A DNA stretch of 64,000 bases, from the NCBI GenBank assembly GCA_016211945.1, contig JACRHV010000006.1, positions 46,723-110,722 of the forward strand, written 5' to 3'. A program made the translations under genes and the position numbers. Below, one piece after another: positions 7,559-55,309 of the stretch. Positions within the stretch are counted from its first letter, which is position 1. The number at the start of each line of letters is the position of its first letter. Origin of the DNA: Minisyncoccota bacterium (GTDB taxonomy: Bacteria > Patescibacteriota > Microgenomatia > UBA1400 > UBA12028). Below the pieces are notes generated by a model. The model ran no database searches and had not been told where the DNA came from. It saw only the letters and a list, made by a program, of their open reading frames with translations.

Positions 7559-7561
7559 CTC

Positions 7562-25083: not shown

Positions 25084-25548
25084 CTACGCTTCTTCCTGTT
25101 GGGGAAGAGATCCTACTGGATACACCGTAAGTCGTCGGTCTCTTCCAATCCCGTCTGATTTTGTCTCAACTCCGGCTTCTTTGAGAAGAGTATGAACGAT
25201 GCGTCGTTCCTCGCTTGAGAGATAGGGGAGCGTTGTTGGTGCGTTGGTCGCTCGCACTCGCTCCAATGCCTCGTCTGCAATACGTTGAACAACCTCTTGT
25301 CTTCGATCAAGATAGTCGTTCACCTCAACCGTCAGGCGTTTATCGGCTAAATCATCTCTGTATGTCAATGTTAGTATCCGCTGTAACGCCTCTAGTGTTT
25401 CGCCTCTATGTCCTATGAGCATTCCTGAGTCTTCTTCTGGGACACGAAAAACAACTCGTGTTTCACTATCTTTTTCCTCGATCTCAACAGTAACATTCTG
25501 ACACCCCATGTGGGCGAGTAACATTGTCACATACTCATGCATTGTCAT
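25084..25548 (-). CDS. jag: Jag/KhpB-like KH + R3H domain RNA-binding protein
   Basis: 154 aa; position downstream of yidC; R3H-like 'ERRIVHTLLKEAGVETKSDG'. Confidence 0.8.
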   Translation of the reverse strand: MTMHEYVTMLLAHMGCQNVTVEIEEKDSETRVVFRVPEEDSGMLIGHRGETLEALQRILTLTYRDDLADKRLTVEVNDYLDRRQEVVQRIADEALERVRATNAPTTLPYLSSEERRIVHTLLKEAGVETKSDGIGRDRRLTVYPVGSLPQQEEA

Positions 25549-31844: not shown

Positions 31845-31908
31845 AGCGTTTTTATCTTAACATAAAAATATAGATGCCTTTTTTCGCAACGAAGGACTAC
31901 ATCACTGC

Positions 31909-32793: not shown

Positions 32794-32807
32794 GATCGCG
32801 CCCGTAT

Positions 32808-33914: not shown

Positions 33915-34022
33915 GATTTTATTGTAGCAGGAAAACGAAGATATCCTTTCTACATAACAAAGAACTGTATTGCCTAAAAAAGAGCAACTTCGTTTTTTCT
34001 TCTCATGTCCAAATACAAAAAC

Positions 34023-38166: not shown

Positions 38167-39978
38167 CTACGACACAAGCCGCGCAGGACTTCCAACGAGC
38201 GCTGAATATGTCATTTCAAATACACCAAATCGCATGCCACCCGCATATGCGATTGAAAGCCAGGAGGGTAGATGTTCAGTATCGTGCGTGTAAGAAGTTG
38301 GTTTTTCTGATGACGCATTTTTTTCTTCAGAATGGCGCACAAGCGATTTTAAGGTATCTTTTGCTTCACAAAAATAACAAATTCCGCACTCGCCAACCCA
38401 ATCGCCAACATGTTTTCCCGCATGTTTTTTTTCACGTTTACGCTCACACAGAGGATTTTTACACCCCTCATCAGAGAACTTCCACGCTGTGTCAAATCGG
38501 TGCGCACCAATGAAGGAACGGAGCTGTTCTTGCGTAAAATCTTGACTACGAAAAAATGAAAGAAGTGCATCAGAAGTTCCAAAAGATTGTAGGTCTGGGA
38601 TGCCTAAAGAGGAGGCAAATGAAGGTTGTGATAACACCGTTCGTATGCCGCCGAACGGAGTTCCCGCTGCGCAGTCGACGACTGACAAAAAGTCAAACTG
38701 TAGAGAACCCATGGTTGGTGCTTTTTTAATAATGTGGGACAAAAATGTTTCTCGTACTTCCGGAAGTTTTTCTGAAGCAAGAGTTTTTCGCCGTTTTGGA
38801 TGCAGAAATTGTTTGTATGCATCCCACACCGCATTTGAATTAAAATCGCCATCGTCAAATCCAAGACCATTCATAGCAACCTCGTTTGCGATGCTCAGCG
38901 CAGCTTCTGAATACGCGTCGTGGTGAAGATATTCTTCAATCAGAACAGAGGTCATGGTCTCCACAACCCTCCTCATTCTTTTTTCGCGAGTATTGAATCG
39001 CGCAATTGCTGTTTGGTGTTCTGTAAGAATAGTTTGAATCTGAGGGGAATCAAGAGAAGCTTTGTGGAGAAGCGCCGTGAAGAATGATTGTGTGTCCAAA
39101 TGTTGAAACATGAAATCAACAGGAAGAATCTGTTGCATTAGTTCCGGTTCTGTTTGGGGGAGAGGGGGTTGGGAGGTATGGAGAGATGCATGTTCCATGA
39201 GATGTGAGAGCTCAGACAAAGGAAGAGCGGCCTTGTACTGATGAAGAAACACAAAGAATTGGTGGCCTTCCGGTAAATAGGGGTTGTATGCGAGCTGGAC
39301 GGCCTCAAGAAATGATTCTCTGTCTGGATGATATACTTGGTGATCTGGCATCGCAAAAATATATTTTTGACCAACAGATGTCGCCCTATCAGCTTCTTTT
39401 CGCATGTGCGGAGGAATAGTCTTTCGGATGTCCTGAGGAAGAGAACCTGAATATGAAATAAATCCTTCAGGAGGAGTGTGTGCGATGTGTTCAATAAGCA
39501 TGTGTGGCGCTGTATGAGAAAGTTCGGAGCTCATAAGAGTCATCACTTCCTTAAGTTGAGCTGCTTCTCTTGCATACCGCTGTGCTCGTTCTAGGTCATG
39601 ATTCTTCATGGCAAGCATCATCGCTTTGCGCTGCTGATCCATAAGACCTTGGTGTGCGTATTGAACTCCCACCAAATCGTCGATATGCAATGTTTGTGCT
39701 GTATGCCACAGAGGAGTGACGACGTTGCAGTAAAAACGAAAACGCATTTCTTCTTGGAGATACGTCGCGTACTCTTTGTGTAAAAGTTCCGAAACGTGCG
39801 GTCGAACGCGCTTTTTTGTAATGAATGAAGGAGTGTTTCCGTAGTGCTGAAAAAGAGATTCAATGGGACCACGGAGTGTGTGGTAGAGATTGAATCGAGG
39901 AACAGGTATGCCAGTGCGTTGTTGAATATATTCTTTGGTTGGAGAACGTCTGGTACGAGTTTCGGCTGCAACGGCCAT
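38167..39978 (-). CDS. hypothetical 603-aa protein (first gene of the minus-strand T4SS-like operon)
   Basis: long ORF, no TM or P-loop, Cys cluster 'CERKREKKHAGKHVGDWVGECGICYFCEAKD'; no family recognised. Confidence 0.5.
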   Translation of the reverse strand: MAVAAETRTRRSPTKEYIQQRTGIPVPRFNLYHTLRGPIESLFQHYGNTPSFITKKRVRPHVSELLHKEYATYLQEEMRFRFYCNVVTPLWHTAQTLHIDDLVGVQYAHQGLMDQQRKAMMLAMKNHDLERAQRYAREAAQLKEVMTLMSSELSHTAPHMLIEHIAHTPPEGFISYSGSLPQDIRKTIPPHMRKEADRATSVGQKYIFAMPDHQVYHPDRESFLEAVQLAYNPYLPEGHQFFVFLHQYKAALPLSELSHLMEHASLHTSQPPLPQTEPELMQQILPVDFMFQHLDTQSFFTALLHKASLDSPQIQTILTEHQTAIARFNTREKRMRRVVETMTSVLIEEYLHHDAYSEAALSIANEVAMNGLGFDDGDFNSNAVWDAYKQFLHPKRRKTLASEKLPEVRETFLSHIIKKAPTMGSLQFDFLSVVDCAAGTPFGGIRTVLSQPSFASSLGIPDLQSFGTSDALLSFFRSQDFTQEQLRSFIGAHRFDTAWKFSDEGCKNPLCERKREKKHAGKHVGDWVGECGICYFCEAKDTLKSLVRHSEEKNASSEKPTSYTHDTEHLPSWLSIAYAGGMRFGVFEMTYSALVGSPARLVS

Positions 39979-40103
39979 ATAATGTCCTTACTCGTTCCTG
40001 ACTTTCTCCATGGAGGAGTTCACAGTTGCGGCACAGTCCACGATTTCCACGTGGTTCCGAGTTGGATTATGGTAGCAGAGAATATGATGGTTGTGAAGAT
40101 TGA

Positions 40104-41444
40104 ATGTGGAGTGTGGGTGGCGAATACATTATTGATGGATCATTGCGTTTTTATAGAGTGGTAGGTAGGATGGAGCATATGGGATTTGATACATCAATGC
40201 TCGGTGTGGAAGGGGTGGAGGCATTTACTTCTCAGCCCGCTTCAGCTCATACGACAGCTGATGCAGTAGCAGATGAAGGTGTTGTAGATGGTGGAGCCGC
40301 AACGTGGATGCCAACCGCAGACGCCGCCACTAAAAACGTGGCCCCAGAAGATGAGAAAAAACAAAAGAAAGAGTTAAAGGAAGAAGACTACGATCTACTT
40401 GCCGCACTCGTTCGACAGCTCAACGAAGCAAATACCGCCTTTTATATAGAGGAGGCGAAAGCTCCAGAAAATCTCGAGGAGCTTAGAAAAGAACATAAAA
40501 AGAACATGCAAACACTTCATGAGCCCATTCTCCTTACGTTAGGAAATTCCGAGCAAAAAGTAGCCCACATTCTTACTAGAGATTTATTTGATCTTTCCCA
40601 ATCTGCAAAAGTTTTTTTTGAGATTACTCGCGTGCTTCAGGATTCTCCCTCAGAGGAGAAACTTACATATAGACTGGAGTTGGAGCATGTAGTTTCTGAG
40701 GGACTTACTCGAGAAATCGTGCGAAAAACACAAGAAAGTCAGAGAGCTTCTAAAGAAGAACCGCAAACAGAGGAAGAGATAAAAAAGGAAGATGCTAGTA
40801 AGGTTCTTGACAAGATTATTGAGAATCCAAATTTGGACGAAGAAAAGAAAAGCCATTTTCGAAAGCTAAAAGAGGCTTTGTTAGCCCTGCCCGGTGAGTT
40901 CTCAGAACACGTTATACAGGGGACCCATATTGATCAACTTATCGAATTTCTTCTAGTGGGAGGATCGTACGGATCATCCTCTGGAAGTTTTGAACATATG
41001 AAGAAAAAAGGGGAGGATTGGTTGGTTGGACACACACATATCGTAGAAGTTTTTGGCCAGCCACCAGAAGGAAATAATCGATGTTTCCACGCCATGGAGG
41101 AAACACTGTTAGAAATTGGCGACACCGATGTTCAAAACAATATACAGAATAAAAATACAGCAAAAGAATTTCTCGATGAAGAAAAAAAGTTTGATTTTAG
41201 CAAATATAAAATGTGGCTTATCTCAAAATATAAACTCTTTTTTGCCATACAGCGCGATGCTGTGGTGAAAAAACTGAAAGAACAGTTATGTGATGGTCTG
41301 GAAGGAAGAAGAGGGATAAAGGTGAAGGTTAAAGATGAACAAAAAGAAGTAGATGAACGAGAATCAAAAGAACTCAGACTCTCGCAAGACGCTCTAGATT
41401 TATTTTTAGAGATGGCGATGGATGCTACGGAGAAGGAAAAATAA
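40104..41444 (+). CDS. hypothetical acidic Glu/Lys-rich protein (start uncertain)
   Basis: 446-aa ORF, highly charged, predicted helical; divergent from 38167..39978. Confidence 0.45.
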   Translation: MWSVGGEYIIDGSLRFYRVVGRMEHMGFDTSMLGVEGVEAFTSQPASAHTTADAVADEGVVDGGAATWMPTADAATKNVAPEDEKKQKKELKEEDYDLLAALVRQLNEANTAFYIEEAKAPENLEELRKEHKKNMQTLHEPILLTLGNSEQKVAHILTRDLFDLSQSAKVFFEITRVLQDSPSEEKLTYRLELEHVVSEGLTREIVRKTQESQRASKEEPQTEEEIKKEDASKVLDKIIENPNLDEEKKSHFRKLKEALLALPGEFSEHVIQGTHIDQLIEFLLVGGSYGSSSGSFEHMKKKGEDWLVGHTHIVEVFGQPPEGNNRCFHAMEETLLEIGDTDVQNNIQNKNTAKEFLDEEKKFDFSKYKMWLISKYKLFFAIQRDAVVKKLKEQLCDGLEGRRGIKVKVKDEQKEVDERESKELRLSQDALDLFLEMAMDATEKEK

Positions 41445-41558
41445 TCGCTTACTTTTGTAGTAAGACAACTCGATGCCTCTCAGACCAGTAAATCTCTGGT
41501 AATAGAAATGTAAAAATAAAGACAACGCTCCCGCCAATCTCGTGTTAAAATAAGTACC

Positions 41559-44450
41559 ATGGTTACTAGATTAGAAACGCCAGCACAAGTAATAGAGGAA
41601 GTTTCAGAGGAGAGGGTTGGGCCACAAGAAATAAAAAATTTCCCGGAATTTTATGCATTCAATAGAGCACGGGGGACATTATATGACAAAATGCGCGCTG
41701 TTCGTGGAGCTCCCCCAGCAACACCAATTCTTTTGGAGGAACACGCAGCCCTAAGAGTTTTTTTGGACGACATTGAAGCATATACAGACGCGAGCATCTC
41801 TCTTTATGAGAGATTGAAACGTGATGGATATGTCCGTGCAGACGAACTTATGAAGGCGGTGCGTGACGAACTTCGTGTGAAAACGGAATCATTATTTGAG
41901 CGGCCGAATTGTCAAATAGAAATAACCGGTACACAATATCCAGCTGAACAAGTGAAATTAGGATTGTACGCTGCGTCTCGGCTTAAGTTAAGACAGATAT
42001 TATCTCAAGGACTTACCCCATCAAATCTCCGTGAAGCACGGGTGTTGTATCGCGCAATGTTTACTTCGCCCGCCGGGCAAATATCGCTCCAGTCTCATAC
42101 CTTTTTTTCTCAAGAACTTCAAGGGGTTTTACAAGCATATCCAGAATTAATGATGGAAGAACCAGAACCAGTAGACATGAAGGATATTACTGATGCAACA
42201 GTAGAAAATAATGTAAGACTAGAAATTGAACAAATATTGGGACAGTTGGGTATAAGAGTAAGCGTTGATCAAGTGCTCCAAACGATAAATGATTGGCAAC
42301 AACGACTTATAGCGTACGATGATAGTCCTTCTGAAAGGGGAGTTATAAATAACGTTCCAATGCTTTCTAGCCTCGAAGGTGAATTGAGAAAAAAGGGAGA
42401 TGCCTTAACCGCCTTTGATCGAGTAAACAAGGTAGGATTAAAACTAAGATCAATAGCAGATGTATTAGCACAAATCATTCAAGACTCACAAACATTAGAC
42501 AACATCGATGAACGAAGAAGAATGGATGTGTGGGTTGATGCGGAGTTGCGCAATTTAGAAAACTCTATAATCACAAGAACTGGAATAGACTTTAAAACAT
42601 ACATTGAGATGATTTTGGATCCAAATTTTGATCCAAACGCAGCAGATGATGATGCGGACACAAATCTTCAAGATATTATTACGAAACTTGAGGCAGAAAG
42701 AAATAGACTTCTTCAACGAAGAGGAAACAGTCCTGTTGCAAGTAGAGTAGCAAATCAACTCAATGAAGATACTTTAGCGAAGATAGTTGGAGAGTGGATT
42801 GTAAAGGCGCGCGATGCGAAAAGAAAAGTGGGGACGCGGACACCCGCAATACCCCTCGTTGATGAGGATGCGCCTCCTAATGTAGCAAAACCCGACATTA
42901 TAAGAATGTATGAAAAAAGAGGATTATCTCAAAATGAACTTATGATGGAGGCAGATAAATACTTATCTGCATTAGAAAGTTCTGAAGAGGGAACAGGAAA
43001 CATAAAAAATAGAGAAACCGTTGTATATCTTGACGCACTACAAGAACTACTTCAAGGAGAAAAGCGTGAATATGTAAGAAGGCGCATAAGATTGTATGAT
43101 GCAGCATCATATGCTGGTGCAAGTAAATCAATGATTGTATCCTATGATGTCCTAATAAAAGGACAAGATAAAAGTGGGGACATATGGGGGGGGAATGGAT
43201 CAAATAAATTTGACGAAAAGGACTATGATTTCTTTTTAAGAGAATGGGACAAACGTGATCAAGTATCTAGAGTTCTTGATGCATTTGCTTATCTTTTCAG
43301 TACCAAACAAATAAATAATGCACCAAATGAATTTTATGCTCCTAATTATCGAGAAGATGAACCTACAAGGAATAAGTTGTGGGCTGAGGCTGGGAGAATT
43401 TCTGGAGTACAGGGAGACGCACTCACGATAGGAATTTATTTAGCAATCTGTTTGGATATGCGAAGGTATTTTGCTATGGCAGAGTATGCAAGAGGATGGT
43501 CTCCTAGGCATGATTTTGCCGCAACAATTGAATGTGTTCAAAAACATAATCCTAATGTTTCGGCGGCATATAAAATTTCTGGAAAAGGAGAAGAACCTGT
43601 TAATTTTGCATTAACATTTGCAGCGATGCCCCCACAATGGACCAGGCTAGCAGAATTCGATATAGGAGCTCATACATCTCAGGACGTGGCTAGACGAAAA
43701 TTAGATAACCTGCTTTTAGCAGATCGCGCAACGAAATTATACTTAGATACCTATGCCCCCATAAGGCAAAAGAGATATCAATTAATAGACGGGAAAAACC
43801 CATGTCCAACTCTTTATGAATTTTTTGTATTAAGACAAGCGGATAGGCTAAGGGGCAAACCCATGACTCTTAAAGACTATTTCAAGGGATATGACTCATT
43901 TGGGAAACTTTATGAAGAATGTGCAAAAACTATTTCGTTTACCGGTGACGCAAAAAAGGACATGGATATTATTTTAAAAGATGTGAGAAATATTCGTGAG
44001 AATTTGTTTTCAGGAACAAAAGCGCTTCCAATGATTGATGCAGAGTATAGAGCACAGATGATTTTATCCCATATATTTATGTTATTTAAAGAATATAATT
44101 TGAAACATCCAGATGGAGCGAATCTTGACAGTTTGAAAGTTGCTGTAAGAAAACTTCTTGAAGAAGGTGCAACATTTTCCACAGGAGGCTTCGAAGATGA
44201 AGACGGACAACAAGTAAATACACAACAGTTTTTTGTAAGAAGATTTCCAGATTACGTTGCACCGGGACTTGCTGGAAGGGGAACTATTGTTACCTATGCA
44301 TTTCCCGGTACTCTTGCGCGAAAGTATGCGCCCATTTTATCTCCACACAGTTTAGATAGAACTTGGGCGAGAACAACCTGGGCCGAATTTAGAAGACAAA
44401 ATGCGCAGATCGAGCTTCCTGAAGCCCCAATGGAAGAGAAGAAAAAATAA
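41559..44450 (+). CDS. hypothetical 963-aa protein (candidate secreted substrate/effector; no motif)
   Basis: long uninterrupted ORF with normal codon usage; no Walker A, no TM; no relaxase motifs found. Confidence 0.55.
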   Translation: MVTRLETPAQVIEEVSEERVGPQEIKNFPEFYAFNRARGTLYDKMRAVRGAPPATPILLEEHAALRVFLDDIEAYTDASISLYERLKRDGYVRADELMKAVRDELRVKTESLFERPNCQIEITGTQYPAEQVKLGLYAASRLKLRQILSQGLTPSNLREARVLYRAMFTSPAGQISLQSHTFFSQELQGVLQAYPELMMEEPEPVDMKDITDATVENNVRLEIEQILGQLGIRVSVDQVLQTINDWQQRLIAYDDSPSERGVINNVPMLSSLEGELRKKGDALTAFDRVNKVGLKLRSIADVLAQIIQDSQTLDNIDERRRMDVWVDAELRNLENSIITRTGIDFKTYIEMILDPNFDPNAADDDADTNLQDIITKLEAERNRLLQRRGNSPVASRVANQLNEDTLAKIVGEWIVKARDAKRKVGTRTPAIPLVDEDAPPNVAKPDIIRMYEKRGLSQNELMMEADKYLSALESSEEGTGNIKNRETVVYLDALQELLQGEKREYVRRRIRLYDAASYAGASKSMIVSYDVLIKGQDKSGDIWGGNGSNKFDEKDYDFFLREWDKRDQVSRVLDAFAYLFSTKQINNAPNEFYAPNYREDEPTRNKLWAEAGRISGVQGDALTIGIYLAICLDMRRYFAMAEYARGWSPRHDFAATIECVQKHNPNVSAAYKISGKGEEPVNFALTFAAMPPQWTRLAEFDIGAHTSQDVARRKLDNLLLADRATKLYLDTYAPIRQKRYQLIDGKNPCPTLYEFFVLRQADRLRGKPMTLKDYFKGYDSFGKLYEECAKTISFTGDAKKDMDIILKDVRNIRENLFSGTKALPMIDAEYRAQMILSHIFMLFKEYNLKHPDGANLDSLKVAVRKLLEEGATFSTGGFEDEDGQQVNTQQFFVRRFPDYVAPGLAGRGTIVTYAFPGTLARKYAPILSPHSLDRTWARTTWAEFRRQNAQIELPEAPMEEKKK

Positions 44451-44465
44451 AAAATCAAAGGGAAA

Positions 44466-46154
44466 TTAACTCTTCTTTGTGGCGTCTTTCTTATCTGCGA
44501 AAGTTGTATCTCCAACTTTATTTGCAGCCCAATGACCGCCTTTTTTAAATTCTTCTTGGATAGGAACAAACGGGTCCGTTCCTGTTCCGCGAACAAAGTT
44601 TCCAGCGCTAATAAATGCACCTTTGCCAGCATCTGCAGCGGCACCAACTCCAACAGCCCCCTTCTTCAAAATATTCTCTCCAGAAACTCCGCCATATGGC
44701 AACTTTGTTGTATCTGTCCAGTCCAACCCATCCACCAACTTGCCACCCTTCCACCCTTTTTGCAAGTTGGCACTGATCTTTGGTATATACTGGTCGAATG
44801 GGCTCTTCGGATTCCCCAACATCTTGAGAGATATATCGATCGCTTCTGGCATGAGCATGAGGATGCCAATAGCAATGAGGCCTTGGATAGCACCAATGCC
44901 CTTAGAGTCAGCCCAAAATGTACTAATTTGTGGAGCTTGAAATCCCGCAGCCTGACTTGAGTCTGTACCATCAATCCATTTATATCCAACCCCCTTTGTT
45001 TCGCTTTGACCCCCTAAAACCATGGCGAGAAATATCATTGTGATAACAACGGGAAACGGTAGAAGTGTGGCAAAAAGACTGCGCAGCCACTCACTAAAAT
45101 CAAGTTTTCCGGTAAAAAGGTTTAACAAAAGTAATATTGGTGAAAAAATAACACTGATAATAAACTTGACATAACTCATGAGCAGTTTAAAAAATGTTTG
45201 TGTGACAGAGAAGAAAATAACAATGGCAAAAACAAGCTCTGCAATGATAGCACCCGAAACATTCGCAATTTTCCCAAGTCCTTGAAGATAAATATTGCTG
45301 TCTTTGCTGGAGAAAAACCCTTCAACAAGTTTCCCAACAGACAGTGCAGCTCCAGCCGTTGGATTTCCACTTCCTCCACCGAATATGAGTTGTAGTCCAT
45401 TTGAAAAAATATTGTTCGAAAGTGCAATTTTTTCAAGCGTAATTGGTTGTCCAAGTGGATCGGTAAGCGTTGGAGGAAGCAAATTTTGTAACTTAAAGAT
45501 GCCTATGATGAGATATATCATCAAATACATGATATCGATAAGAAAACCACTAATTGCAAACGAAAAAGTAATAGCAAGCGCGGTCCAGAGAAAATTTGGG
45601 ATAGCACTCGTTATGGTTACCGCTGTCTGTCCTCCCCATTTTTGCCGGAACATAATCATAAACCCGATGTACATAAATGCCAGAACAAAGAAGATATACG
45701 CAATGTCGCGAAATGCCTTCCATACTTGAAGAATAGGGCTCAAACTTTTAAACCCAATACCTTGTGCATACGCTTGAGGAACAAAAGGAGAATGTTCTAA
45801 AAGATCTGCAATCCAAACACCAGTATTTGCCGGAGGATGTGTGATCATGGCGGCCATCATATTTCCCATTTGTGGGACAACCCCCTGAATAACACTCTCT
45901 CCATCAGTCGAACGACCTCCAATAAGGATATCGGTCCACGAATGACTATTTCGCACCCAAGTTCCCAGATTATATGCCTCATTGTTAATATTACCCGTAT
46001 CTTGTGTGTGTTTGACCGCGTCATTAAATTCTTCATTGCTTGGGGTTACGAGCGATCTTCGCAAGTCTTCTGAAGGCCTTTCTGCAACAGCAAACACGGT
46101 ATGGGGAGTAAAAAAAAGCACAATGATCACAAGAAAAGAGAAAACGCGTTTCAT
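44466..46154 (-). CDS. VirB6/TrbL-like polytopic membrane protein with signal peptide and Gly-rich C-terminal tail
   Basis: start placed at 'MKRVFSFLVIIVLFFTPHTVFAVA' signal peptide; ~120-aa extracytoplasmic N-domain then at least 6 TM segments ('IAYIFFVLAFMYIGFMIMF', 'LWTALAITFSFAISGFLIDIMYLMIYLIIGIF' ...). Confidence 0.5.
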   Translation of the reverse strand: MKRVFSFLVIIVLFFTPHTVFAVAERPSEDLRRSLVTPSNEEFNDAVKHTQDTGNINNEAYNLGTWVRNSHSWTDILIGGRSTDGESVIQGVVPQMGNMMAAMITHPPANTGVWIADLLEHSPFVPQAYAQGIGFKSLSPILQVWKAFRDIAYIFFVLAFMYIGFMIMFRQKWGGQTAVTITSAIPNFLWTALAITFSFAISGFLIDIMYLMIYLIIGIFKLQNLLPPTLTDPLGQPITLEKIALSNNIFSNGLQLIFGGGSGNPTAGAALSVGKLVEGFFSSKDSNIYLQGLGKIANVSGAIIAELVFAIVIFFSVTQTFFKLLMSYVKFIISVIFSPILLLLNLFTGKLDFSEWLRSLFATLLPFPVVITMIFLAMVLGGQSETKGVGYKWIDGTDSSQAAGFQAPQISTFWADSKGIGAIQGLIAIGILMLMPEAIDISLKMLGNPKSPFDQYIPKISANLQKGWKGGKLVDGLDWTDTTKLPYGGVSGENILKKGAVGVGAAADAGKGAFISAGNFVRGTGTDPFVPIQEEFKKGGHWAANKVGDTTFADKKDATKKS

Positions 46155-46218
46155 GTCTTCGTATTGTACAGAACAATCGAGAGAACAACAAGCATTTTCC
46201 TGGTACAATACCAGAGAT

Positions 46219-49200
46219 ATGGTTCCTCGATTTTCTCTCTTTATTACCTCTGTTATTTCCATTTTTGTTTTTCTGGCATTTCCTTCCGGTATTCGAGCGG
46301 TAGAGTTGGGAACGCATGTTGCCCATTTTGATCGTGGAGCGGAGATCGGTGTTTTAGGCCTTATTCGAAGCAAGTTGAGCAAACAAGATGGATATCCCGT
46401 TACCATCAACATTGATCCGCAATGGTCAACAGCAGAGATCCAAGAACTTGCCGACAAGGCAGAAGGCTTTCGTGTTGCTCTTCGTATTATTAGCGTTTCA
46501 AGCAAAGCAACCCCAGAAGAAATGCAAACGCTTGTTCAACAACTCAATGGTGTGCGTTGGAAGACTACAGGAAAACCTGTTGTTGTGTTGGGAAACGAAC
46601 TGAATAACTTAGTAGATGAATGGAAAAGTATTGCTGTTTCAGTTGAGGCTGCGGGAGCTGCGTACACACCACTTCATGATGTGATATGGTCAGGGTCGCC
46701 AAAATTAGACATGGGAAGGTACGACCTTGCTGCTGCAACCATTGACCCATACCATCCGAACAACTGGAAACTTTTTGTGTCAGGGGCGGGGAGGGCATAT
46801 ACACAGCACAATACAATCTTTGTAGCAAACATCTATGAAAACAGTGCAGAGGACACAAAAAAACGGATTGAAGAAATCAAATCGGGAATTTCCGGAGTAC
46901 CGTCAAAAACAATACTCACAGAGTATGGACCAAAAGACCCCAAATCGCCGCTTGCTGAGTACATGCGGTTCTATAAAGAGAACGCTCCGCCATCCAATGT
47001 GGAATATGCGACCGCACTACTCGCTAATTATTGTAAGAAAGATAAGGCAGTTTTTGGATATTTCTACTATATAGAAGGAAAAGTGTACACGATTGATGGT
47101 GATGAGGTGGACCCACAAACCTGTCTCGGGGCAAAATCACTCACTGATGAATCAAAAACCCCAGATGATGAGGTAGACGGCATCTATGTCTACAAAGATA
47201 TCTATAAAAATGTGCTGTTAAATGGGGAAAAAGGAGGGAAGGAAAGTGCGTCAAGATACGTCATGATGTGTGCTCCGCAATTTTGGACAGACGCTGAGAT
47301 TCAAGACCAAGATAAAAAAATCTATTGGGAAAAACTTGGCGACAAGGCAAAAACACTCAGCGAGTACTGCACAAGTGAGATAGGATCAAATACGAACGAA
47401 CCAAACTGCGTATTCGATCCTGTCACTGCAAACTTTACTGTTATTAATGATAATCTTACGGTTCCGTTGTATAGGAAGGCGACCTTTAATGATAAAGGTC
47501 AGCAAATGGACAATAACAGGGCAGAAAGCATTGAGTCGTTTTTTGGAACGAACACAAAAGAGGGAAGAAAAACAGGGGATCCGCTTTTATATTCACCCAA
47601 CGTCAAACTTCTTTCAAAGGCGCAGTACTGCACTCAAACAGTTCGATACTTAAAGGCAATTGAGATGATGTGCCAAGAACCGCAAGCACAGCAATCAACA
47701 ACAGACAAAGAAATAGTGCCTAGGGGAAAATGCACATTGAACAATGAATTCGAGAACAGTCGAAAACAAAAAGTGCGCTATTTGGATATTCTCAAACAAG
47801 TAAAAGACAACGCGGCTGCTCAGGGGCTACAGACACCAGAAGACTATTGTGATCTTGTAGTAAAAAAACAAGACCCCAATCTCATGAAGGACCTTGCCCA
47901 AGTCCAACCGCTCACAAAAAATGCGTTTAAAATTGGATACCTTGTCTATTACAATACCGGGAGGTATAAAAAAGACTCAAATGATCCGGAAGACAAAGCC
48001 GCTTTTCAGGATAGCTCAGAATATTTCCACCCGGTCTACAGAACATTGCGCGATTACTATGCCAATGTGACATTCCAAGTAATTCCCTTCTTAGTTCCTG
48101 CAAATGTATTTAGCACCTCGTCACAGGAAGACGTTGTTGGAAATTCGTTCGCCTCGTTTGATAGTCCGTACACAACAGTATTTCAAACACTCATGCCGCA
48201 AGCAAAGATAAACCAATTGGCAGAAAGTGAACAAAAAAGAAGAGTGATGATTGAGTCTCAACTCGATCAACCATGGAATGCATTCAATGACGCTAGTCAG
48301 GAAAAACCGTACATTCAATGTCCTGTTTGCGATGACAGTTATAACAAGAGAGGATATGTTCCGTCGGTGGGGTCTTTAGCGGCAAACAAAACGTATCTCG
48401 CTTTTGCAAAAACGATATGGAGACGCATCAATGCGGGAATCTACACAAAAGAATTTGTGCAAAATTTGGATGTAAAACAGGGAAATGAACTCGTGGCCCA
48501 ACCTCCTGATATTTGGAATAGTTGCAATGTGGCGCCGGAACTCGTCCGCGGTGAGTCTGCGCAAGCACTCCATTCACAGGGTGGCATTTCCTTGATAAAG
48601 GATGGAAAAGAAACGTTGTGGGGGAAGGTGAAGCAGTCGGCGACAGAGATTACATCGCTCATCCGTGCTCCTAAGGGTACTCGGAGAGATCCGTATGAAT
48701 ATTACGTTCGGGGATATCTCCTTTTACCGCAAGAATACGGATATCTTCTCTCGACAGAACAGGATTTTCTGCGAGCGTTGATCCCGTACTCTGCACAAAA
48801 AAATATTTTAGAGACAGAGCAAAAGAAGAACGACTTTAACGCATTTGGTAATATCGCAGGACTTGATCCGTCTAAAGCAGACTATGATAAACAAGTTCCG
48901 CTATGGAATCGTTTTCTTCGCTTAAACGGCCAGGTTTTTGGACTAAACGATCTGACCGCAGACTCTACGGGAAAGCACGGCAAAGATGGGAATCCGGACA
49001 CATATTACACAGAATCTAAAGATGAATATGAAGCACGCGTCGCAAAAGCAAGACAAGATTGTGCAAATAGAGGGATTTTGCCAAGAGACTGCTCAATTCC
49101 GGAGCGGAAGAAAACAGAGATTACAGCAAAGCAAACATCACAAAATCCAGGATATAAAGAGGGAAAAACCGATTTTCGTCCCATCCTTCCGGGAGGATGG

Positions 49201-50028
49201 TTAGCGCGGGGCATCTTTGAGTTGATGGCACACATTACTTCGAGTAAAGGAAGTGCCAACTTTCAAGATAAATATTGTGGACTGGAAGACTATTTATTGG
49301 GGACAAACTGTGCGGGTGCGGGAAGTACAAGTTCGATCAAAAATACAACAACCTCATCTACAAAGGGAGATATCGCGTGTATAAATGTATGGGTTGATGA
49401 AGCAACGGCACAGGCACACGCACAAGACATTTTAGCAAGTCTTCCTTCACGCGCAGATTGGGGGAAATATTTTTCTGGTTATTTGAGTGATCCGGTAAGG
49501 CAGTGCAAGGATCCAACCACAAACCCAAGTCCGAGTGAATACGATAGCGTGGCAAAGCAATATCTCTTTGAGTCTGTTCCTGAATGCGGTGGAGTGTCGT
49601 GCTATTCGTATATTGTTCAGCGCACATTATCTGCAAAGACATCGGACGGTAAGGTTGTTGATCCCTACATCGCAATTTCTATTGCATTAAATGAAAATGG
49701 TGGACTAAAAACAGCGAGGAAAGATCGGATGAGTCAACATTTTGGAGTGGTGACTCCTATTACGGGTCACTCAAAAGAATGTCCGGAGGATAACGAGTAC
49801 ATGGGCAGAATTGATGAGAAACTCGACATCATGCTCCAAACGCTCATCGCAGGATATAAGGGAAAGGATACTTTGGGTGCAGATGGTGTTGCGGCATTAG
49901 AGCGATATAAATCGGGAAGTAATGCAAGACCGCTTGAAGATCAAACGTATAGTCAGAAAATGATACAACTTACACAGATCATCAGCGGTAACGCATACTC
50001 ACCACTGTGTACAGGGAAAACTCTTTAA
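46219..50028 (+). CDS. giant (1269-aa) secreted protein; N-terminal region with GH-A-like 'VVVLGNELNN' motif
   Basis: start placed at 'MVPRFSLFITSVISIFVFLAFPSGIRA' signal peptide (track ORF start at 45982 would overlap divergent gene); 30+ Cys; no repeats. Confidence 0.6.
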   Translation: MVPRFSLFITSVISIFVFLAFPSGIRAVELGTHVAHFDRGAEIGVLGLIRSKLSKQDGYPVTINIDPQWSTAEIQELADKAEGFRVALRIISVSSKATPEEMQTLVQQLNGVRWKTTGKPVVVLGNELNNLVDEWKSIAVSVEAAGAAYTPLHDVIWSGSPKLDMGRYDLAAATIDPYHPNNWKLFVSGAGRAYTQHNTIFVANIYENSAEDTKKRIEEIKSGISGVPSKTILTEYGPKDPKSPLAEYMRFYKENAPPSNVEYATALLANYCKKDKAVFGYFYYIEGKVYTIDGDEVDPQTCLGAKSLTDESKTPDDEVDGIYVYKDIYKNVLLNGEKGGKESASRYVMMCAPQFWTDAEIQDQDKKIYWEKLGDKAKTLSEYCTSEIGSNTNEPNCVFDPVTANFTVINDNLTVPLYRKATFNDKGQQMDNNRAESIESFFGTNTKEGRKTGDPLLYSPNVKLLSKAQYCTQTVRYLKAIEMMCQEPQAQQSTTDKEIVPRGKCTLNNEFENSRKQKVRYLDILKQVKDNAAAQGLQTPEDYCDLVVKKQDPNLMKDLAQVQPLTKNAFKIGYLVYYNTGRYKKDSNDPEDKAAFQDSSEYFHPVYRTLRDYYANVTFQVIPFLVPANVFSTSSQEDVVGNSFASFDSPYTTVFQTLMPQAKINQLAESEQKRRVMIESQLDQPWNAFNDASQEKPYIQCPVCDDSYNKRGYVPSVGSLAANKTYLAFAKTIWRRINAGIYTKEFVQNLDVKQGNELVAQPPDIWNSCNVAPELVRGESAQALHSQGGISLIKDGKETLWGKVKQSATEITSLIRAPKGTRRDPYEYYVRGYLLLPQEYGYLLSTEQDFLRALIPYSAQKNILETEQKKNDFNAFGNIAGLDPSKADYDKQVPLWNRFLRLNGQVFGLNDLTADSTGKHGKDGNPDTYYTESKDEYEARVAKARQDCANRGILPRDCSIPERKKTEITAKQTSQNPGYKEGKTDFRPILPGGWLARGIFELMAHITSSKGSANFQDKYCGLEDYLLGTNCAGAGSTSSIKNTTTSSTKGDIACINVWVDEATAQAHAQDILASLPSRADWGKYFSGYLSDPVRQCKDPTTNPSPSEYDSVAKQYLFESVPECGGVSCYSYIVQRTLSAKTSDGKVVDPYIAISIALNENGGLKTARKDRMSQHFGVVTPITGHSKECPEDNEYMGRIDEKLDIMLQTLIAGYKGKDTLGADGVAALERYKSGSNARPLEDQTYSQKMIQLTQIISGNAYSPLCTGKTL

Positions 50029-50500: not shown

Positions 50501-50526
50501 AAAAAGCCCCGGTTCCCCGGGGCCTT
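50501..50526 (-). terminator. rho-independent terminator downstream of pilin-like paralog 2
   Basis: minus-strand RNA: GCCCCGG-GGAA-CCGGGGC followed by UUUUU. Confidence 0.6.
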
Positions 50527-50884: not shown

Positions 50885-50933
50885 ATTTCCTCCTTTTGTC
50901 CTAGATGTATTCTATATGTTCTTTCTCTGTATA

Positions 50934-51251
50934 TCAAGGGTTTACTATTGTAATGTCGAGTCCAAAGAAATAGTTGATAATGCGGAAGATTGCAAAGACA
51001 CTCACCATCACAGCCAAACCAATGAGCCCTTGTGTAATCATCTGTTTTGCGTTATCTATTTTTCCTTTATCGCCACTTGCAATAATCCACATGAATCCAC
51101 CAAGAACCATGTATGCCAAAGCGGCAACTGAAGCAACGGCCAGAGCCAGCCCAGCATATCGTCCAATCAATGTTCCCAAGTCCAGTTGAACTTTTGGTCC
51201 CAAATTCGATCGGATATCAACTTTTTGCGCAAGTAGTATTGGTAACGTCAT
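50934..51251 (-). CDS. VirB2/TrbC-like two-TM pilin candidate, paralog 3
   Basis: 'AYMVLGGFMWIIASGDKGKIDNAKQMITQGLIGLAVMVSVFAI'. Confidence 0.55.
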   Translation of the reverse strand: MTLPILLAQKVDIRSNLGPKVQLDLGTLIGRYAGLALAVASVAALAYMVLGGFMWIIASGDKGKIDNAKQMITQGLIGLAVMVSVFAIFRIINYFFGLDITIVNP

Positions 51252-51260
51252 ACTATTCCT

Positions 51261-51830
51261 TTATTTACATCCTCCGCGTCCGTCCGGATTTACCCCAGAG
51301 TCGCATGGAGCGTTTCCCGCATTACAGTTACAGGTGTCGCTAATCCCAAATCCACACATACCCTGATTTTTTCCACCGCATGTATTACAAATATTTGGAT
51401 TATTGAGAGTAATTGGAGTTTTCCCCTGACAATACGGATTCGAAGACCCCGTTCCAGTAGAGGAGGTTCCGCCAAGATCTCCAGAGATGCGTGTGAAATC
51501 TGGTGCCAAGAGATCAATTCCAAGTGCGGTGCCAAAGAATGTACTGATGGCCGCGACTGAGAATAATACAGCCAATCCAATAAGACCCTGTGTGATTCTA
51601 TCTTTTGCTTGCTCGATTTTCCCCTTATCACCTCCCGCAGAAATCCAGGTCAACCCACCCATAATCATGTATGCAACAACCGCCAATCCACCAAGAACGA
51701 GGGAAGTTTGCCACAGAATTCCAATATATTTCCCCAAACCTGTACCAGCAACATCGGGATTAGCTGCGTTTTGCAGTCCTGCAGGGAGAGCGGGATTTGA
51801 GATGTCGGCCAACATTGTAGATAACGTCAT
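51261..51830 (-). CDS. VirB2/TrbC-like two-TM pilin candidate, paralog 4, with Cys-rich C-terminal extension
   Basis: 'AYMIMGGLTWISAGGDKGKIEQAKDRITQGLIGLAVLFSVAAI' then 60-aa tail with 10 Cys ('CNTCGGKNQGMCGFGISDTCNCNAGNAPCDSG'). Confidence 0.55.
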   Translation of the reverse strand: MTLSTMLADISNPALPAGLQNAANPDVAGTGLGKYIGILWQTSLVLGGLAVVAYMIMGGLTWISAGGDKGKIEQAKDRITQGLIGLAVLFSVAAISTFFGTALGIDLLAPDFTRISGDLGGTSSTGTGSSNPYCQGKTPITLNNPNICNTCGGKNQGMCGFGISDTCNCNAGNAPCDSGVNPDGRGGCK

Positions 51831-51831
51831 A

Positions 51832-52209
51832 TTATTGCCACAACCCTTCCAACATTTTTACGGGACTGAGAATACTGATTCCCAACACACCACCAACAAT
51901 ACTAATGATAAACTGAGCAAGAATGACAATAATGAGTCCGATCGCAGCGTTCGTCATTTGAGTTCGAGCAGCCTCAACCTTTCCTTTATCCCCACTGGCG
52001 GAAAGCCAAGCCAACCCACCGAAAACGAAGTACATAAGAAACATAAGTCCGCCAATAATAGTGAAGAAACCCAGAAAAACAGAGAGAAATTTTTCAATTG
52101 CTCCGCCCCCTGCCTCGGCTCCAGTTCCATCTGCTGGTCGGAAATACGGACTCGTTCCCTGGATTGTTCCTTGAAGAGGGTTTTGCGCAAGTAAAGAGAG
52201 TACGTTCAT
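51832..52209 (-). CDS. VirB2/TrbC-like two-TM pilin candidate, paralog 5
   Basis: 'MYFVFGGLAWLSASGDKGKVEAARTQMTNAAIGLIIVILAQFI'. Confidence 0.55.
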   Translation of the reverse strand: MNVLSLLAQNPLQGTIQGTSPYFRPADGTGAEAGGGAIEKFLSVFLGFFTIIGGLMFLMYFVFGGLAWLSASGDKGKVEAARTQMTNAAIGLIIVILAQFIISIVGGVLGISILSPVKMLEGLWQ

Positions 52210-52718
52210 CGCGTTCTTCCCCCGTTATTGTTCCGATCTCGTAGTGAATCAGGTAGCGCTTTGAGAATAGCGTCAATGTCTCCATTGGATGAGGAACCGG
52301 AGTTTCTTCCCGGACCCCCCTCTGGACCACCGCCAGATGAAGCAGGAGCTCCCGGGCCTTGAATAACAGGACTCACAAAAAAAGTAGCATCCTTGAAGAG
52401 GAGAAATCCAGTCAAAGCCATAAGGGCAGGGGCAAGAATCATAATGACCAAACCCCACAGACTCATGTTTAATTTACTCATGACTTTCTCATGTGCTTTT
52501 GCATCTCCTGCTGAAGTAAGATAGGTATATCCAGCCATGACAATGTTATACAGAGCAATGAGTCCCCCTACAATAATTGCCATTCTTAACAGATTTGTTG
52601 TGAGAGTAATAAGTCCACCACTAGCACCGTAATCTGCAATCGCAGCTGGCGGTGTTATTGTTCCAAAAAATGTTGAGTCTGCCATTATTCTTTTTCCTAC
52701 ATTACTACGGACCACCAT
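52206..52718 (-). CDS. VirB2/TrbC-like two-TM pilin candidate, paralog 6 (divergent loop, Gly/Ser/Asn-rich C-terminal extension)
   Basis: 'LYNIVMAGYTYLTSAGDAKAHEKVMSKLNMSLWGLVIMILAPAL' then 'PGAPASSGGGPEGGPGRNSGSSSNGD'; real start possibly the internal Met of 'MADSTFF'. Confidence 0.5.
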   Translation of the reverse strand: MVVRSNVGKRIMADSTFFGTITPPAAIADYGASGGLITLTTNLLRMAIIVGGLIALYNIVMAGYTYLTSAGDAKAHEKVMSKLNMSLWGLVIMILAPALMALTGFLLFKDATFFVSPVIQGPGAPASSGGGPEGGPGRNSGSSSNGDIDAILKALPDSLRDRNNNGGRTR

Positions 52719-53060: not shown

Positions 53061-53459
53061 TTATTGAGGAGTTGCAGACGATGTTCCGGTTTTTTGTGTC
53101 GCACTTTCTGTCGCTGTGCTTTCTTTTTTTGGTGTTCCTGCTTCTGCTGTAACCGCAGTCTTCTTTAATCCCTTTTCATCTGTCTCGGTAATTTCTTTGA
53201 TAATAGGGAAAGTTGACAGAACTTCATCGGGATACAACTTTCTTTGTCTCAAGTCTTGAAGCGTTTTTATATCAAGTACGGGGGTAAGCGGTTGAACTTG
53301 TCGCTGAACTGTTGGCGGAATAGACGATTTGTGAAGAGAAAAATATATTGTCATTCCGATCCAAACTCCAACAGCAACCAAGGATACGACAAAAATCGTC
53401 AGGATAATCTGTCTTCTAAAAAGCGATTTGATGAATGGTTGTTCCTGTGCTGCGTTCAT
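53061..53459 (-). CDS. hypothetical single-pass membrane protein (Thr/Ser-rich C-terminus)
   Basis: TM 'IILTIFVVSLVAVGVWIGMTIYF'; co-oriented between PilO-like gene and pilin-like array. Confidence 0.45.
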   Translation of the reverse strand: MNAAQEQPFIKSLFRRQIILTIFVVSLVAVGVWIGMTIYFSLHKSSIPPTVQRQVQPLTPVLDIKTLQDLRQRKLYPDEVLSTFPIIKEITETDEKGLKKTAVTAEAGTPKKESTATESATQKTGTSSATPQ

Positions 53460-54133
53460 GGTGTTTTTTCATCCTTCTTTGCAGAACTTCCTGGAAGTTG
53501 TATTGGAGTGCCATAGTATGCAACGCGAAAAGCAATAGTTGTAATGAGTGAGCTGGTTTTCTCAAATTCGTCTCGTTTCGCATTCATTACAAGCGAATCA
53601 ACCGAAACATACCGATCCATTGCCAACATCTCGGCAATAAACGCGCGGACGAGTGGGTATGGGGCCTTCAGATTGACGCTGATCAAATAACTTGTGAGCT
53701 GAGGAGCGGTGCTCGTTGCTTCTTTTGGAACTTGTGTGACCTGCAGCGAGTTAATGAGTACGGTATGTGCCGTTGCGACATACTCAAGACGTCGCATGAA
53801 TCCATCAAAATTTGGTGTGTTCGGTATTGCTTTATGAAGTAAGCTTACTTCATTCTTTAACGTCGGAAGCTCACTACTTAATGTAGAAAGTGAGGCTATT
53901 TTTTTTGAAAGTGCGTCGCTCGTTTTTCTCCGGTCCTCGATATCATGGAGCAGTTGTGACATGGTGAGCAACGTTGGACGAATGGCAAAAAGCGCGAGAA
54001 GGATGACCGCGAGAAGTGTTGCAATAAGCTCTGTGGAGACCTTTGCAATCGGTTTTTGATAAAACTGTTGCAGCTGCCTCACCGTTTGGTTGCGTGGTGC
54101 GGAGGGTATTGAAGAAAACGGTGAGTGTATCAT
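53456..54133 (-). CDS. PilO-like type IV pilus/secretion inner-membrane assembly protein
   Basis: 225 aa; short cytoplasmic N-term, TM 'LIATLLAVILLALFAI', coiled coil, then ~120-aa C-domain; overlaps PilN-like gene by 4 nt. Confidence 0.45.
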   Translation of the reverse strand: MIHSPFSSIPSAPRNQTVRQLQQFYQKPIAKVSTELIATLLAVILLALFAIRPTLLTMSQLLHDIEDRRKTSDALSKKIASLSTLSSELPTLKNEVSLLHKAIPNTPNFDGFMRRLEYVATAHTVLINSLQVTQVPKEATSTAPQLTSYLISVNLKAPYPLVRAFIAEMLAMDRYVSVDSLVMNAKRDEFEKTSSLITTIAFRVAYYGTPIQLPGSSAKKDEKTP

Positions 54134-54705
54134 GACGTTTTCCCTCCCGGTATGGGTTGTATTTGCACGCGAATAGAAAACTCTAGGCCGGCACCACCCT
54201 GCGTATTGCTTTTAATTTGATCGACATACAATGCTTTTGTTTGCGGTTGTTTTTGAAGTCTGCGCACAAGAACAGCCAACGATTCAGGAGTAAGTGCGTT
54301 CCCAGTAATCTGCACTTCCTGTGCGCGAATCTGAACAAGTGTATAGACCACATCTTTAGGAATGCTTTTTGCGAGAACATCAAGCGCACTCAACGGATCC
54401 TGTGTCCCTTTTTGTTGTTGGAGGAACTCCGTTTTTTTCTGGATGAGACGTACATCCGACTCTAATGTTCCGTACGAATCAACAATGTAGGACTTTTGTG
54501 TAATGGATGAGTTCAGATCAGTAAGATCGCGGTCGAGTTTAAAACGAGAGGCGAAACTGATAATGACAACAATTTCAGTAAAAATAACAAGGTAGCGACC
54601 AACAGTGGAGGCCCACGCCATAATGCGCCCAACGGGAGTCTCAAAAAAAGGATCCTGAGGAAGCAAATTTATCGACAGATGGCGGGGCTGGACGCTGGTC
54701 TGCAT
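54130..54705 (-). CDS. PilN-like assembly protein (INLLP motif)
   Basis: 191 aa; N-terminal 'LSINLLPQDPFF' (PilN INLLP PilM-binding motif) followed by TM 'YLVIFTEIVVIISFA' and periplasmic domain. Confidence 0.55.
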   Translation of the reverse strand: MQTSVQPRHLSINLLPQDPFFETPVGRIMAWASTVGRYLVIFTEIVVIISFASRFKLDRDLTDLNSSITQKSYIVDSYGTLESDVRLIQKKTEFLQQQKGTQDPLSALDVLAKSIPKDVVYTLVQIRAQEVQITGNALTPESLAVLVRRLQKQPQTKALYVDQIKSNTQGGAGLEFSIRVQIQPIPGGKTS

Positions 54706-54775: not shown

Positions 54776-55309
54776 ATGAAATATAATTATTCTGAGGCAG
54801 ACGTTTTACTTCTTCAATCTGGTGATGTTCGTGCTGTAGAACGATGGTTTCGTACGTTTCAAAAACCACTGTTCGCCTTCATTCTTACTCGAGTATCTGA
54901 TCTGCATGATGCAGAAGAATTGTGTCAAAATACTTTTCTCTCTTGTCTTGAAACACTCCCGTTGTATAGAGGAACATCATCGCTTTTTACTTGGATGTGT
55001 GCGGTGGCAAAGCATGAGATTGCGGATTACTTTAGGAAAAAATATGCCAAACGCGCACTACAACTCATTCCATTTGGAGAAACATTGTTGCCCGAACATC
55101 TTCATACTATGCACGATGTTTCGGATACGGTTCGTAGGGTACTCAAGAAACTAACGCAAAAGGAGCGAGAACTTCTTTTTCTGAAATACATAGACAACGC
55201 AAGTGTAAAATCAATCGCGCATTCATTGGGGATGAGTATGAAAAGTATAGAGTCGATGTTATATAGGGCAAGAAAAGCGTTTCAAAGGATTTATGCAGAA
55301 CACATCTAG
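54776..55309 (+). CDS. RNA polymerase sigma factor, ECF (sigma-70 regions 2 and 4)
   Basis: region 2 'LSCLETLPLYRG...FTWMCAVAKHEIADYFRK'; region 4 HTH 'ASVKSIAHSLGMSMKSIESMLYRARKAF'. Confidence 0.8.
   Translation: MKYNYSEADVLLLQSGDVRAVERWFRTFQKPLFAFILTRVSDLHDAEELCQNTFLSCLETLPLYRGTSSLFTWMCAVAKHEIADYFRKKYAKRALQLIPFGETLLPEHLHTMHDVSDTVRRVLKKLTQKERELLFLKYIDNASVKSIAHSLGMSMKSIESMLYRARKAFQRIYAEHI

Follow-up and report, generated by a model that had tools for sequence, protein, structure and literature searches.

The DNA analyzed here, referred to as the window, is a stretch of 64,000 nucleotides from a metagenome-assembled genome (MAG) of Candidatus Pacebacteria, a groundwater ultra-small bacterium. 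It is part of a 228-kb contig and contains an array of seven closely packed minus-strand open reading frames (ORFs), designated P1–P7 (50031–53037), whose products are helical-hairpin proteins of a pilin-like family. One of them, P4, also carries a C-terminal module with eight cysteines. P4 is probably a bimodular minor subunit, composed of an anchoring or polymerizing core and a linker-tethered extracellular 8-Cys module that serves as an exchangeable specificity element. P4 and its module are a real and selected feature.

A cysteine-rich module on a hairpin core

P4 is encoded at 51261–51830 (minus strand, including the stop codon) and is 189 residues long. The hairpin core (residues 34–106, 51513–51731) is built from helix 1, a GGDKGK loop, and helix 2. 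Its hydropathy peaks lie at residues 45–63 and 82–100, AlphaFold2 predicts helices at residues 25–64 and 69–103 with a predicted local distance difference test score (pLDDT) of 70–79, and the core is 72–84% identical in orthologs. The core is followed by an LLAPDF motif and a Gly/Ser/Thr-rich linker (residues 107–130, 51441–51512), which were delimited by alignment. The C-terminal module (residues 131–189, 51264–51440) is defined by its cysteine count, by its codon changes, and by alignment with two proteins, P0046 and P0048, described below.

The eight cysteines of P4, at residues 134, 148, 151, 159, 167, 169, 176, and 188, all fall in the final 56 residues, and P2, P3, P5, P6, and P7 have none. 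Given a background cysteine frequency of 0.96% in the 24 long ORFs of the window, the probability of at least eight cysteines in 56 residues is about 7e-8. A preliminary description of the window, made from the sequence alone, had reported this ORF and quoted its C-terminal peptide, and both are present in the translation. It had counted ten cysteines, of which the translation contains eight, in a 60-residue extension. The extension is real, but it measures about 83 residues, divided between a linker of about 24 residues and a 59-residue module.

The extension recurs in other data: the 189-residue P4 is found as four sequence variants in independent assemblies. Between the window and the related locus L006, 14 codons differ in the module, 13 of them synonymously and one non-synonymously. 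In the core, 29 of 31 codon differences are synonymous. Judged from these sequences, the module is under purifying selection, and neither the P4 tail nor the tail of P6 is an assembly artefact. The origin of the tails by frameshift, read-through, or mis-assembly is effectively refuted. Gene calls in these arrays are sometimes broken, as illustrated by truncated P4 orthologs and by a fused P6–P5 protein (P0044, 282 aa), but the independent recovery of P4 from four assemblies, codon changes of the coding type, and the existence of distant module homologs argue against such an origin. In public data, P0044 and the truncated orthologs P0014–P0016 are either natural variants or broken low-coverage gene calls.

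P4 is identical to MBI5151529.1 (HZA34_03055), and P6 to HZA34_03065. All seven array ORFs match the PF18895 (T4SS_pilin) family in a Pfam search. P5 (39.1 bits, the best match), P4 (30.4), and P2 (27.3) score above the gathering score of 26.6 bits. P1, P3, P6, and P7 fall below it (E 5e-5 to 2e-3; P6, 22.9 bits, E = 9e-5) and still align with the other paralogs. All array ORFs except P1 also give weak, sub-threshold matches to NCBIfam NF045849, a 'pilin-like conjugal transfer protein' of Mycoplasma integrative and conjugative elements. The two hydrophobic helices and the short polar or basic loop that characterize PF18895 are evident from hydropathy, AlphaFold2, and the Lys and Arg counts of the family. 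These data bear out the earlier proposal that the array proteins are pilin-like hairpins with two transmembrane segments.

Published tandem arrays are defined as divergent copies with about 25% identity and a VirB4 within ±20 coding sequences (CDS) (PMC12102498). The seven window ORFs share 16–25% pairwise identity, and a VirB4-like ATPase lies about 10–13 CDS away.

The orientation of the hairpin in the membrane is indicated by residue statistics over 443 family members. The density of Lys and Arg is 18.1 per 100 residues in the loop between the helices and falls to 4.5 ahead of helix 1 and to 5.1 beyond helix 2. Cysteine does not occur among the 7531 loop residues, is almost absent from the helices, and makes up 1.2–1.5% of the termini. 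In addition, a canonical Sec signal peptide precedes the common hairpin core in P1, and the homologous module in P0046 and P0048 comes after an N-in signal-anchor helix. Because of the charge and cysteine statistics of the loop, the P1 signal peptide, and the N-in anchor before the module, the loop is very probably cytoplasmic and both termini extracytoplasmic. The statistics agree with the extracytoplasmic placement of the extensions proposed earlier and give no sign of a cytoplasmic C terminus.

The module includes one C-x2-C pair and one C-x-C pair, which could form a cytoplasmic zinc-binding tail if the topology were inverted. Such an inversion is very improbable, as the positive-inside statistics, the complete exclusion of cysteine from the loop, the signal peptide of P1, and the fact that in P0046 and P0048 the module follows a signal anchor of N-in orientation all stand against it.

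The N termini of P2–P5 (50861–50884, 51227–51251, 51804–51830, and 52183–52209) have no signal peptide and display a short motif, M-x(1-7)-hydrophobic-hydrophobic-A-[QEDA], as in MLALLAQ, MTLPILLAQ, and MNVLSLLAQ. Among 450 family members, 122 have the motif, against 13 in shuffled controls. In the paralog alignment it coincides with the VYA/Q cleavage site of P1, and it may be a processing site.

Homologs and exchange of the module

A phmmer comparison of the 61-residue P4 tail with 1.8 billion representative proteins retrieved the cluster of P4 itself plus three further proteins, of which two are genuine homologs. P0046 (377 aa) matches with E = 4.7e-8 and 67% identity over 43 residues (69% over 42 in tblastn), and P0048 (451 aa) with E = 3.4e-4 and 58% identity over 43 residues. 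The third protein, P0047 (1786 aa), is Gly/Thr-rich and repetitive, matches only query residues 24–48, and was rejected as a low-complexity artefact. P0046 and P0048 are non-pilin, single-pass surface proteins, the only carriers of the 8-Cys module besides P4 in this protein set. They lack the hairpin core and consist of a Pro-rich N terminus, one membrane helix, the module in mid-protein, and further Cys-rich and Pro/Thr-linked domains.

An alignment of four module sequences contains 28 invariant columns, including all eight cysteines. The modules of P4, P0046, and P0048 share the core motif NQGxCGxGxSDTCNCN...PCD...GGC and conform to the pattern C-x9-13-C-x2-CG-x2-NQG-x-CG-x-G-x-SDTCNCN-x2-3-N-x-PCD-x4-P-x-G-x-GGC. 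This degree of conservation indicates that the module is a genuine domain.

The nucleotide identity between the module and the P0046 gene (locus L005) is 61%, and only 24% at third codon positions. Because the third positions are saturated, the similarity appears to be old and kept by selection. Recent horizontal transfer of the module is ruled out by these identities and by its matching GC content (0.448, against 0.439 for the array).

No Pfam family matches the module at E ≤ 1, and a sequence profile search of the PDB gave no match at E ≤ 10. The preliminary description likened the module to a small disulfide-rich knot. It may resemble knottins, defensins, and EGF-like domains, with which it has its small size (about 59 aa), even number of cysteines, and CxC pair in common, but it has eight cysteines rather than six and no Pfam or PDB sequence match. 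A word-indexed homolog search seeded with the module alignment came back empty and was uninformative, as even the known members were missed. A degenerate DNA pattern for CGxGxSDTCNCN had no match in genome contigs and none in metagenome contigs. The sole metagenome-contig match to the module, L065, is spurious: the matching frame runs antisense within the M3 peptidase gene of a high-GC organism.

RP4 TrbC and Ti VirB2 are known to lose C-terminal residues in maturation. By analogy, the P4 tail could be a propeptide or a released product, that is, a Cys-rich peptide that is cleaved and then discarded or secreted. The conserved LLAPDF motif and the flexible linker ahead of the module would suit cleavage, as would P0014–P0016, which end within the linker. 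A cleaved tail is nevertheless improbable. The module is embedded midway in proteins of 377 and 451 residues, it is under strong purifying selection, which would not be expected of a discarded peptide, and the annotated neighborhood contains neither a dedicated peptidase gene nor one for maturation of the RiPP (ribosomally synthesized and post-translationally modified peptide) type. A RiPP or lanthipeptide precursor was rejected separately, since the module occurs within large proteins and its surroundings lack modification enzymes.

P4 orthologs with conserved cores all continue into a Gly-rich linker and then into differing modules. One type of tail contains a 4-Cys module (C..GEYGC..V.M.C..HW....C), and a second contains a related 6-Cys module (..GGYC..V[KR]C..H[WF]EPCxC..C). 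Other orthologs have two cysteines or none after the linker. Neither the 4-Cys nor the 6-Cys module is homologous to the 8-Cys module of P4. When the window is aligned with loci L001 and L004 by tblastn, the homology of P4 ends at residue 115–116 and resumes in the next gene.

The distribution of extensions was surveyed in a wider set. A scan of GTDB species genomes with a P4 alignment yielded 56 loci in Woese-, Collier-, Cerri-, Pacebacteria, and other MAGs of the Microgenomates group, which together with earlier loci gave 65 loci and 465 hairpin-core ORFs. The median extension past the core is 12 residues, and 35 of the 465 array members have an extension of at least 30. Almost all of these long extensions consist of a linker and an even number of cysteines (4, 6, or 8). 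P4 bears a long 6-Cys tail in relatives of the window. In Woesebacteria and others, the long 6-Cys tail is located on the next array position (best match P3 or P2), and the P4 position is short-tailed with 0–4 cysteines. These comparisons indicate that the type of module and the position of its carrier both change while the cores stay put.

Woesebacteria arrays (L027, 7894–10764; also L015, L018–L021, L026, L033, and L038) end with a protein of about 880–966 residues and 22–27 cysteines. It has a signal peptide and no Pfam domain, and its last 75 or so residues form a hairpin core with an SSGDAKA loop like that of P6. It is an N-terminally decorated counterpart to the C-terminally decorated P4.

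In the arrangement that we consider probable, each array protein would insert as a helix–loop–helix hairpin, with the Lys-rich GGDKGK loop in the cytoplasm and both termini outside. The core of P4 would be the anchoring or polymerizing part. Its linker would hold the 8-Cys module, presumably disulfide-bonded, on the extracellular face, either of the cell membrane or, if the array polymerizes like VirB2/TraA, on the filament exterior. The module would behave as an exchangeable cassette, since sister lineages keep the core with unrelated 4- or 6-Cys modules and distant lineages use a different array member. The swapping pattern fits a surface element that determines specificity, such as recognition of a host, partner, or ligand. 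For P4, it also strengthens the earlier suggestion that the extensions could act as tip or adhesin modules, a role that P4 may have.

Several observations weigh against this arrangement. Filaments are not known from any Microgenomates array. A PDB sequence profile search with the seven-paralog profile found no pilin, Foldseek of the full P4 model against the PDB returned only generic helical hairpins (all E > 1), and hhalign gave a probability of 0.5% between the paralog profile and Agrobacterium tumefaciens VirB2, which is a weak test. AlphaFold2 provides no confident fold for the module, with a pLDDT of about 30 for the tail of full P4 (22-sequence alignment) and a mean of 39 for the 61-residue module alone (4-sequence alignment). 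The module family is very small, with three clusters among the 1.8 billion representatives. Only about 12–18 residues separate the membrane from the module in P0046 and P0048, a distance that suits a membrane-proximal role as much as distal display. Finally, the close P4 orthologs P0014–P0016 (121–124 aa) stop in the linker and have no module, so that the module may be dispensable or the gene calls may be broken.

The ordered array and its genomic neighborhood

The array is immediately preceded by three genes on the same strand, with gaps of 0–25 nt. They encode a PilN-like protein with an N-terminal INLLP motif (54130–54705; PF05137, E = 3.4e-12), a PilO-like protein (53456–54133; PF04350, E = 2.8e-7), and X132, a small single-pass protein (53061–53459) with homologs in L001, L004, L005, and L013. 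The pilN–pilO–X–array arrangement also occurs in L001, L002, L004, and L013. In most other lineages there is no PilN or PilO upstream, and the array directly adjoins a gene for a sigma factor of the extracytoplasmic function (ECF) type. The operons of P0046 and P0048 are ordered pilN–pilO–X–(fn3/Big_13 protein)–(module protein)–(another surface protein), and their PilN and X are 31–33% identical to those of the window.

These neighbors suggest the main alternative, in which the hairpins stay in the membrane and P4 is an anchor. Its module, close to the membrane, would be a domain for docking or recognition that acts together with the co-transcribed PilN–PilO–X complex (type IV pilus alignment proteins) and is not presented on a pilus of the T4SS type. 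In its favor, pilN, pilO, X132, and P7–P2 form one packed same-strand unit with a single terminator and with synteny in the four loci named above. The sole other module carriers are non-pilin proteins downstream of a homologous pilN–pilO–X, with the module directly past the membrane helix, and the array has no detected sequence or structure link to canonical VirB2. This alternative is unlikely, however, as the PilN–PilO–X linkage is lineage-specific, and most Microgenomates arrays lack it and adjoin the ECF sigma gene. Related Saccharibacteria arrays lie inside a type IV secretion system (T4SS) cluster and are essential (PMC10633639). With only two non-pilin carriers, the co-occurrence with PilN–PilO may also be chance.

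The triad of pilN, pilO, and a small single-pass protein, with no adjacent pilM, is found in the window (53061–54705, minus strand), in L005 (3283–4621), and in L008 (1550–3185). In L005 and L008 it stands at the head of operons for unrelated surface proteins, among them one with the 8-Cys module. The protein downstream of P0046 in L005 (7106–8335) contains a further Cys-rich stretch (CGGTCGSNASCQSGMTCFEGFCRNPEC), followed by a hydrophobic anchor at the C terminus, and its upstream neighbor ends in a sorting-signal-like hydrophobic tail.

The other array members, all on the minus strand, are hairpin proteins of 105–159 residues. P7 (52705–53037, 110 aa) and P3 (50934–51251, 105 aa) are assigned by their PF18895 matches, supplemented by orthologs for P7. 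P5 (51832–52209, 125 aa) and P6 (52206–52685, 159 aa) lie directly upstream of P4. P2 (50546–50884, 112 aa) is the most conserved member. P1 (50031–50468, 145 aa) has a Sec-type signal peptide (..VYA/QS) and two cysteines in its N-terminal ectodomain.

By tblastn, each window paralog has a one-to-one ortholog in L001 and L004. The identity to these loci is 88–89% for P2, 74–79% for the P4 core, 69–70% for P5, 64–66% for P6 and P7, 57–68% for P3, and 58% for P1. Best-match assignment in L001–L064 reveals that the order P7–P6–P5–P4–P3–P2–P1 is kept across distant Microgenomates lineages. The seven ORFs, described earlier as paralogs, are indeed paralogous, but they represent ancient collinear families and not recent copies. 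The array thus appears to be an ordered set of seven ancient families with one-to-one orthologs, an organization that is apparently new. One-to-one orthology and collinearity argue against the published analogy with antigenic variation and for defined subunit roles.

An intrinsic-terminator-like hairpin (50503–50526, minus strand), with a 10-bp stem, seven GC pairs, and a T-run, closes the pilN-to-P2 unit. It is the only strong terminator in the region, and P1 lies beyond it. A sigma-70-like match (TTGATA-17-TAGAAT, 50909–50937, minus strand) is located directly upstream of P2; it is a consensus match only, and promoter-like matches are no more frequent in the region than in shuffled sequence. 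P2, not P4, is probably the major subunit, because it is the most conserved member and has its own promoter-like site and strong terminator.

P6 belongs to a separate, old family marked by its GDAKAHEK loop, which is kept in all its orthologs. Its ORF can open at 52718, but Met12 at 52685 is the more likely start because of an AGGA-type ribosome-binding site, the NCBI call (HZA34_03065, 159 aa), and the orthologs. The divergent GDAKAH loop and the Gly/Ser/Asn-rich tail noted in the preliminary description are both present. The tail (52209–52355, minus strand) is a low-complexity stretch of Gly, Ser, Pro, and Asn with a short conserved segment, DAILKALPDxLRD, as supported by 20 orthologs and by codon changes. 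In these orthologs it ranges from about 11 to 60 residues of poly-Gly, Ser, Pro, or Asn. Codon changes in the tail comprise 15 synonymous and 9 non-synonymous ones, compared with 35 and 5 in the core. These values indicate that the tail is coding but under relaxed constraint, and that it is a low-complexity segment, not a module or domain. It is best read as a fast-evolving, presumably disordered spacer.

A gene for an ECF-type sigma-70 factor (54776–55309, plus strand) is divergent to the array and is conserved beside arrays in other lineages. Divergent genes of this type adjoin Woesebacteria and Pacebacteria arrays in L027 (4779–5318), L012 (1799–2332), and L045 (3698–4294). This placement suggests that the sigma factor is a dedicated regulator of the array. 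A broader proposal is that the Microgenomates arrays are not sets of interchangeable antigenic variants but form a fixed seven-part heteromeric surface apparatus under ECF sigma control, in which Cys cassettes that pass between array members and lineages set target specificity, and which in Pacebacteria is coupled to PilN–PilO–X, the 8-Cys module being a PilN–PilO–X-associated domain. Taken as a whole, this proposal is decidedly unlikely. If it were true, the apparatus would be coupled to PilN–PilO–X instead of, or besides, the T4SS, and the module would be a recognition or docking domain common to non-pilin surface proteins.

On the other side, a gene for a large secreted protein (45982–50028, plus strand) converges on the array. 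The protein has up to 1348 residues, its true start being uncertain, and contains 25 cysteines and no Pfam match. Its homologs are located beside arrays in L001, L010, L013, L032, L034, and L039 (E 1e-17 to 0).

The T4SS genes of the window, about ten genes from the array, include those for a VirB4-like ATPase (29982–31844, minus strand) and a PrgI (VirB3-like) family protein (32808–33914, minus strand). They lie by dnaA and dnaN, beside the origin, which is the layout published for Patescibacteria (PMC12102498). The window ORFs that were scanned included no relaxase and no coupling protein. The T4SS-like cluster (29982–38161, minus strand) also encodes a 1056-residue protein with a C-terminal M23 peptidase and two unannotated proteins of membrane-protein size. 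Between this cluster and the array are four large ORFs (603, 446, 963, and 679 aa; 38167–46505) that match no Pfam family at E ≤ 0.001. Elsewhere the window encodes a surface protein with a PKD domain and, after it, a sortase (6173–8221, plus strand), two insertases of the YidC/Oxa1 family (12199–13035 and 25545–26336, minus strand), and a tyrosine recombinase (773–1639, minus strand).

Relation to known pilins and implications

Arrays of VirB2-like genes have been described in Patescibacteria, with 441 arrays of 2–11 genes that are enriched in Microgenomatia (Quinonero-Coronel et al. 2025, PMC12102498). Their members are about 25% identical to each other, the T4SS (VirB4, PrgI/VirB3) is near dnaA, and a diversity resembling antigenic variation was proposed (PMC12102498). 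In Southlakia (Saccharibacteria), arrays of predicted pilins within the T4SS cluster are essential (Wang et al. 2023, PMC10633639), and the arrays have been reviewed in PMC12857230. The seven window ORFs match the published arrays in size, tandem hairpins, low identity, and a T4SS near dnaA. However, the published arrays are viewed as antigenic-variation-like, whereas the seven ORFs are collinear ortholog families across Woese-, Collier-, Cerri-, and Pacebacteria. The three papers (PMC12102498, PMC10633639, and PMC12857230) are silent on C-terminal Cys modules, linker tails, PilN–PilO linkage, or an adjacent ECF sigma factor. The ancient collinear families, the bimodularity of P4, the swapped modules, and the occurrence of the module in pilN–pilO-linked surface proteins are apparently new.

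The array proteins resemble the conjugative pilins VirB2, TrbC, and TraA in having two hydrophobic helices and a short basic loop, with the loop inside and the termini outside. These pilins have a long cleavable Sec signal peptide, whereas in the array only P1 does. P2–P7 are without one and have just a short N terminus of the form MxxxLLAQ; those of P4 and P6 begin MTLSTMLAD.. and MADSTFF.., respectively. Both termini of F-type pilins are on the pilus exterior, and peptides fused to the C terminus of F-pilin are displayed on the pilus. To our knowledge, canonical conjugative pilins have not been described with naturally occurring Cys-rich domains at the C terminus.

P4 also invites comparison with type IV pilins, which have a disulfide-bonded D-region. 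Modular type IV pilins, such as PilB and PilC of Streptococcus sanguinis, combine a pilin part with a grafted C-terminal functional module and are low-abundance subunits that determine binding specificity. P4 shares with them a conserved polymerization or anchor part and a variable, Cys-containing, exposed C terminus, and its gene lies near pilN and pilO. However, type IV pilins consist of an α1 helix and a β-sheet globular head, whereas the array core is a two-helix hairpin. The class III leader of type IV prepilins and the G/FxxxE motif are absent from all seven N termini, where the hydrophobic stretch of helix 1 starts only near residues 30–45, not directly after a leader. An identity as type IV pilins was therefore rejected, with no class III leader, G/FxxxE motif, or PilD site. 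The modular type IV pilins and the C-terminal display on F-pilin would be the closest functional analogies of P4.

Few surface features specific to Patescibacteria have been shown to be essential for an epibiotic lifestyle, and VirB2-like arrays are among them (PMC10633639). Within such an array, a P4 that keeps its core and exchanges its module is a candidate determinant of host or partner specificity. The recurrence of the module in pilN–pilO operons raises a testable link to a type IV pilus platform. At 59 residues, the module is a short, synthesizable peptide, which would open binding, structural, and antibody work on organisms that are uncultivated.

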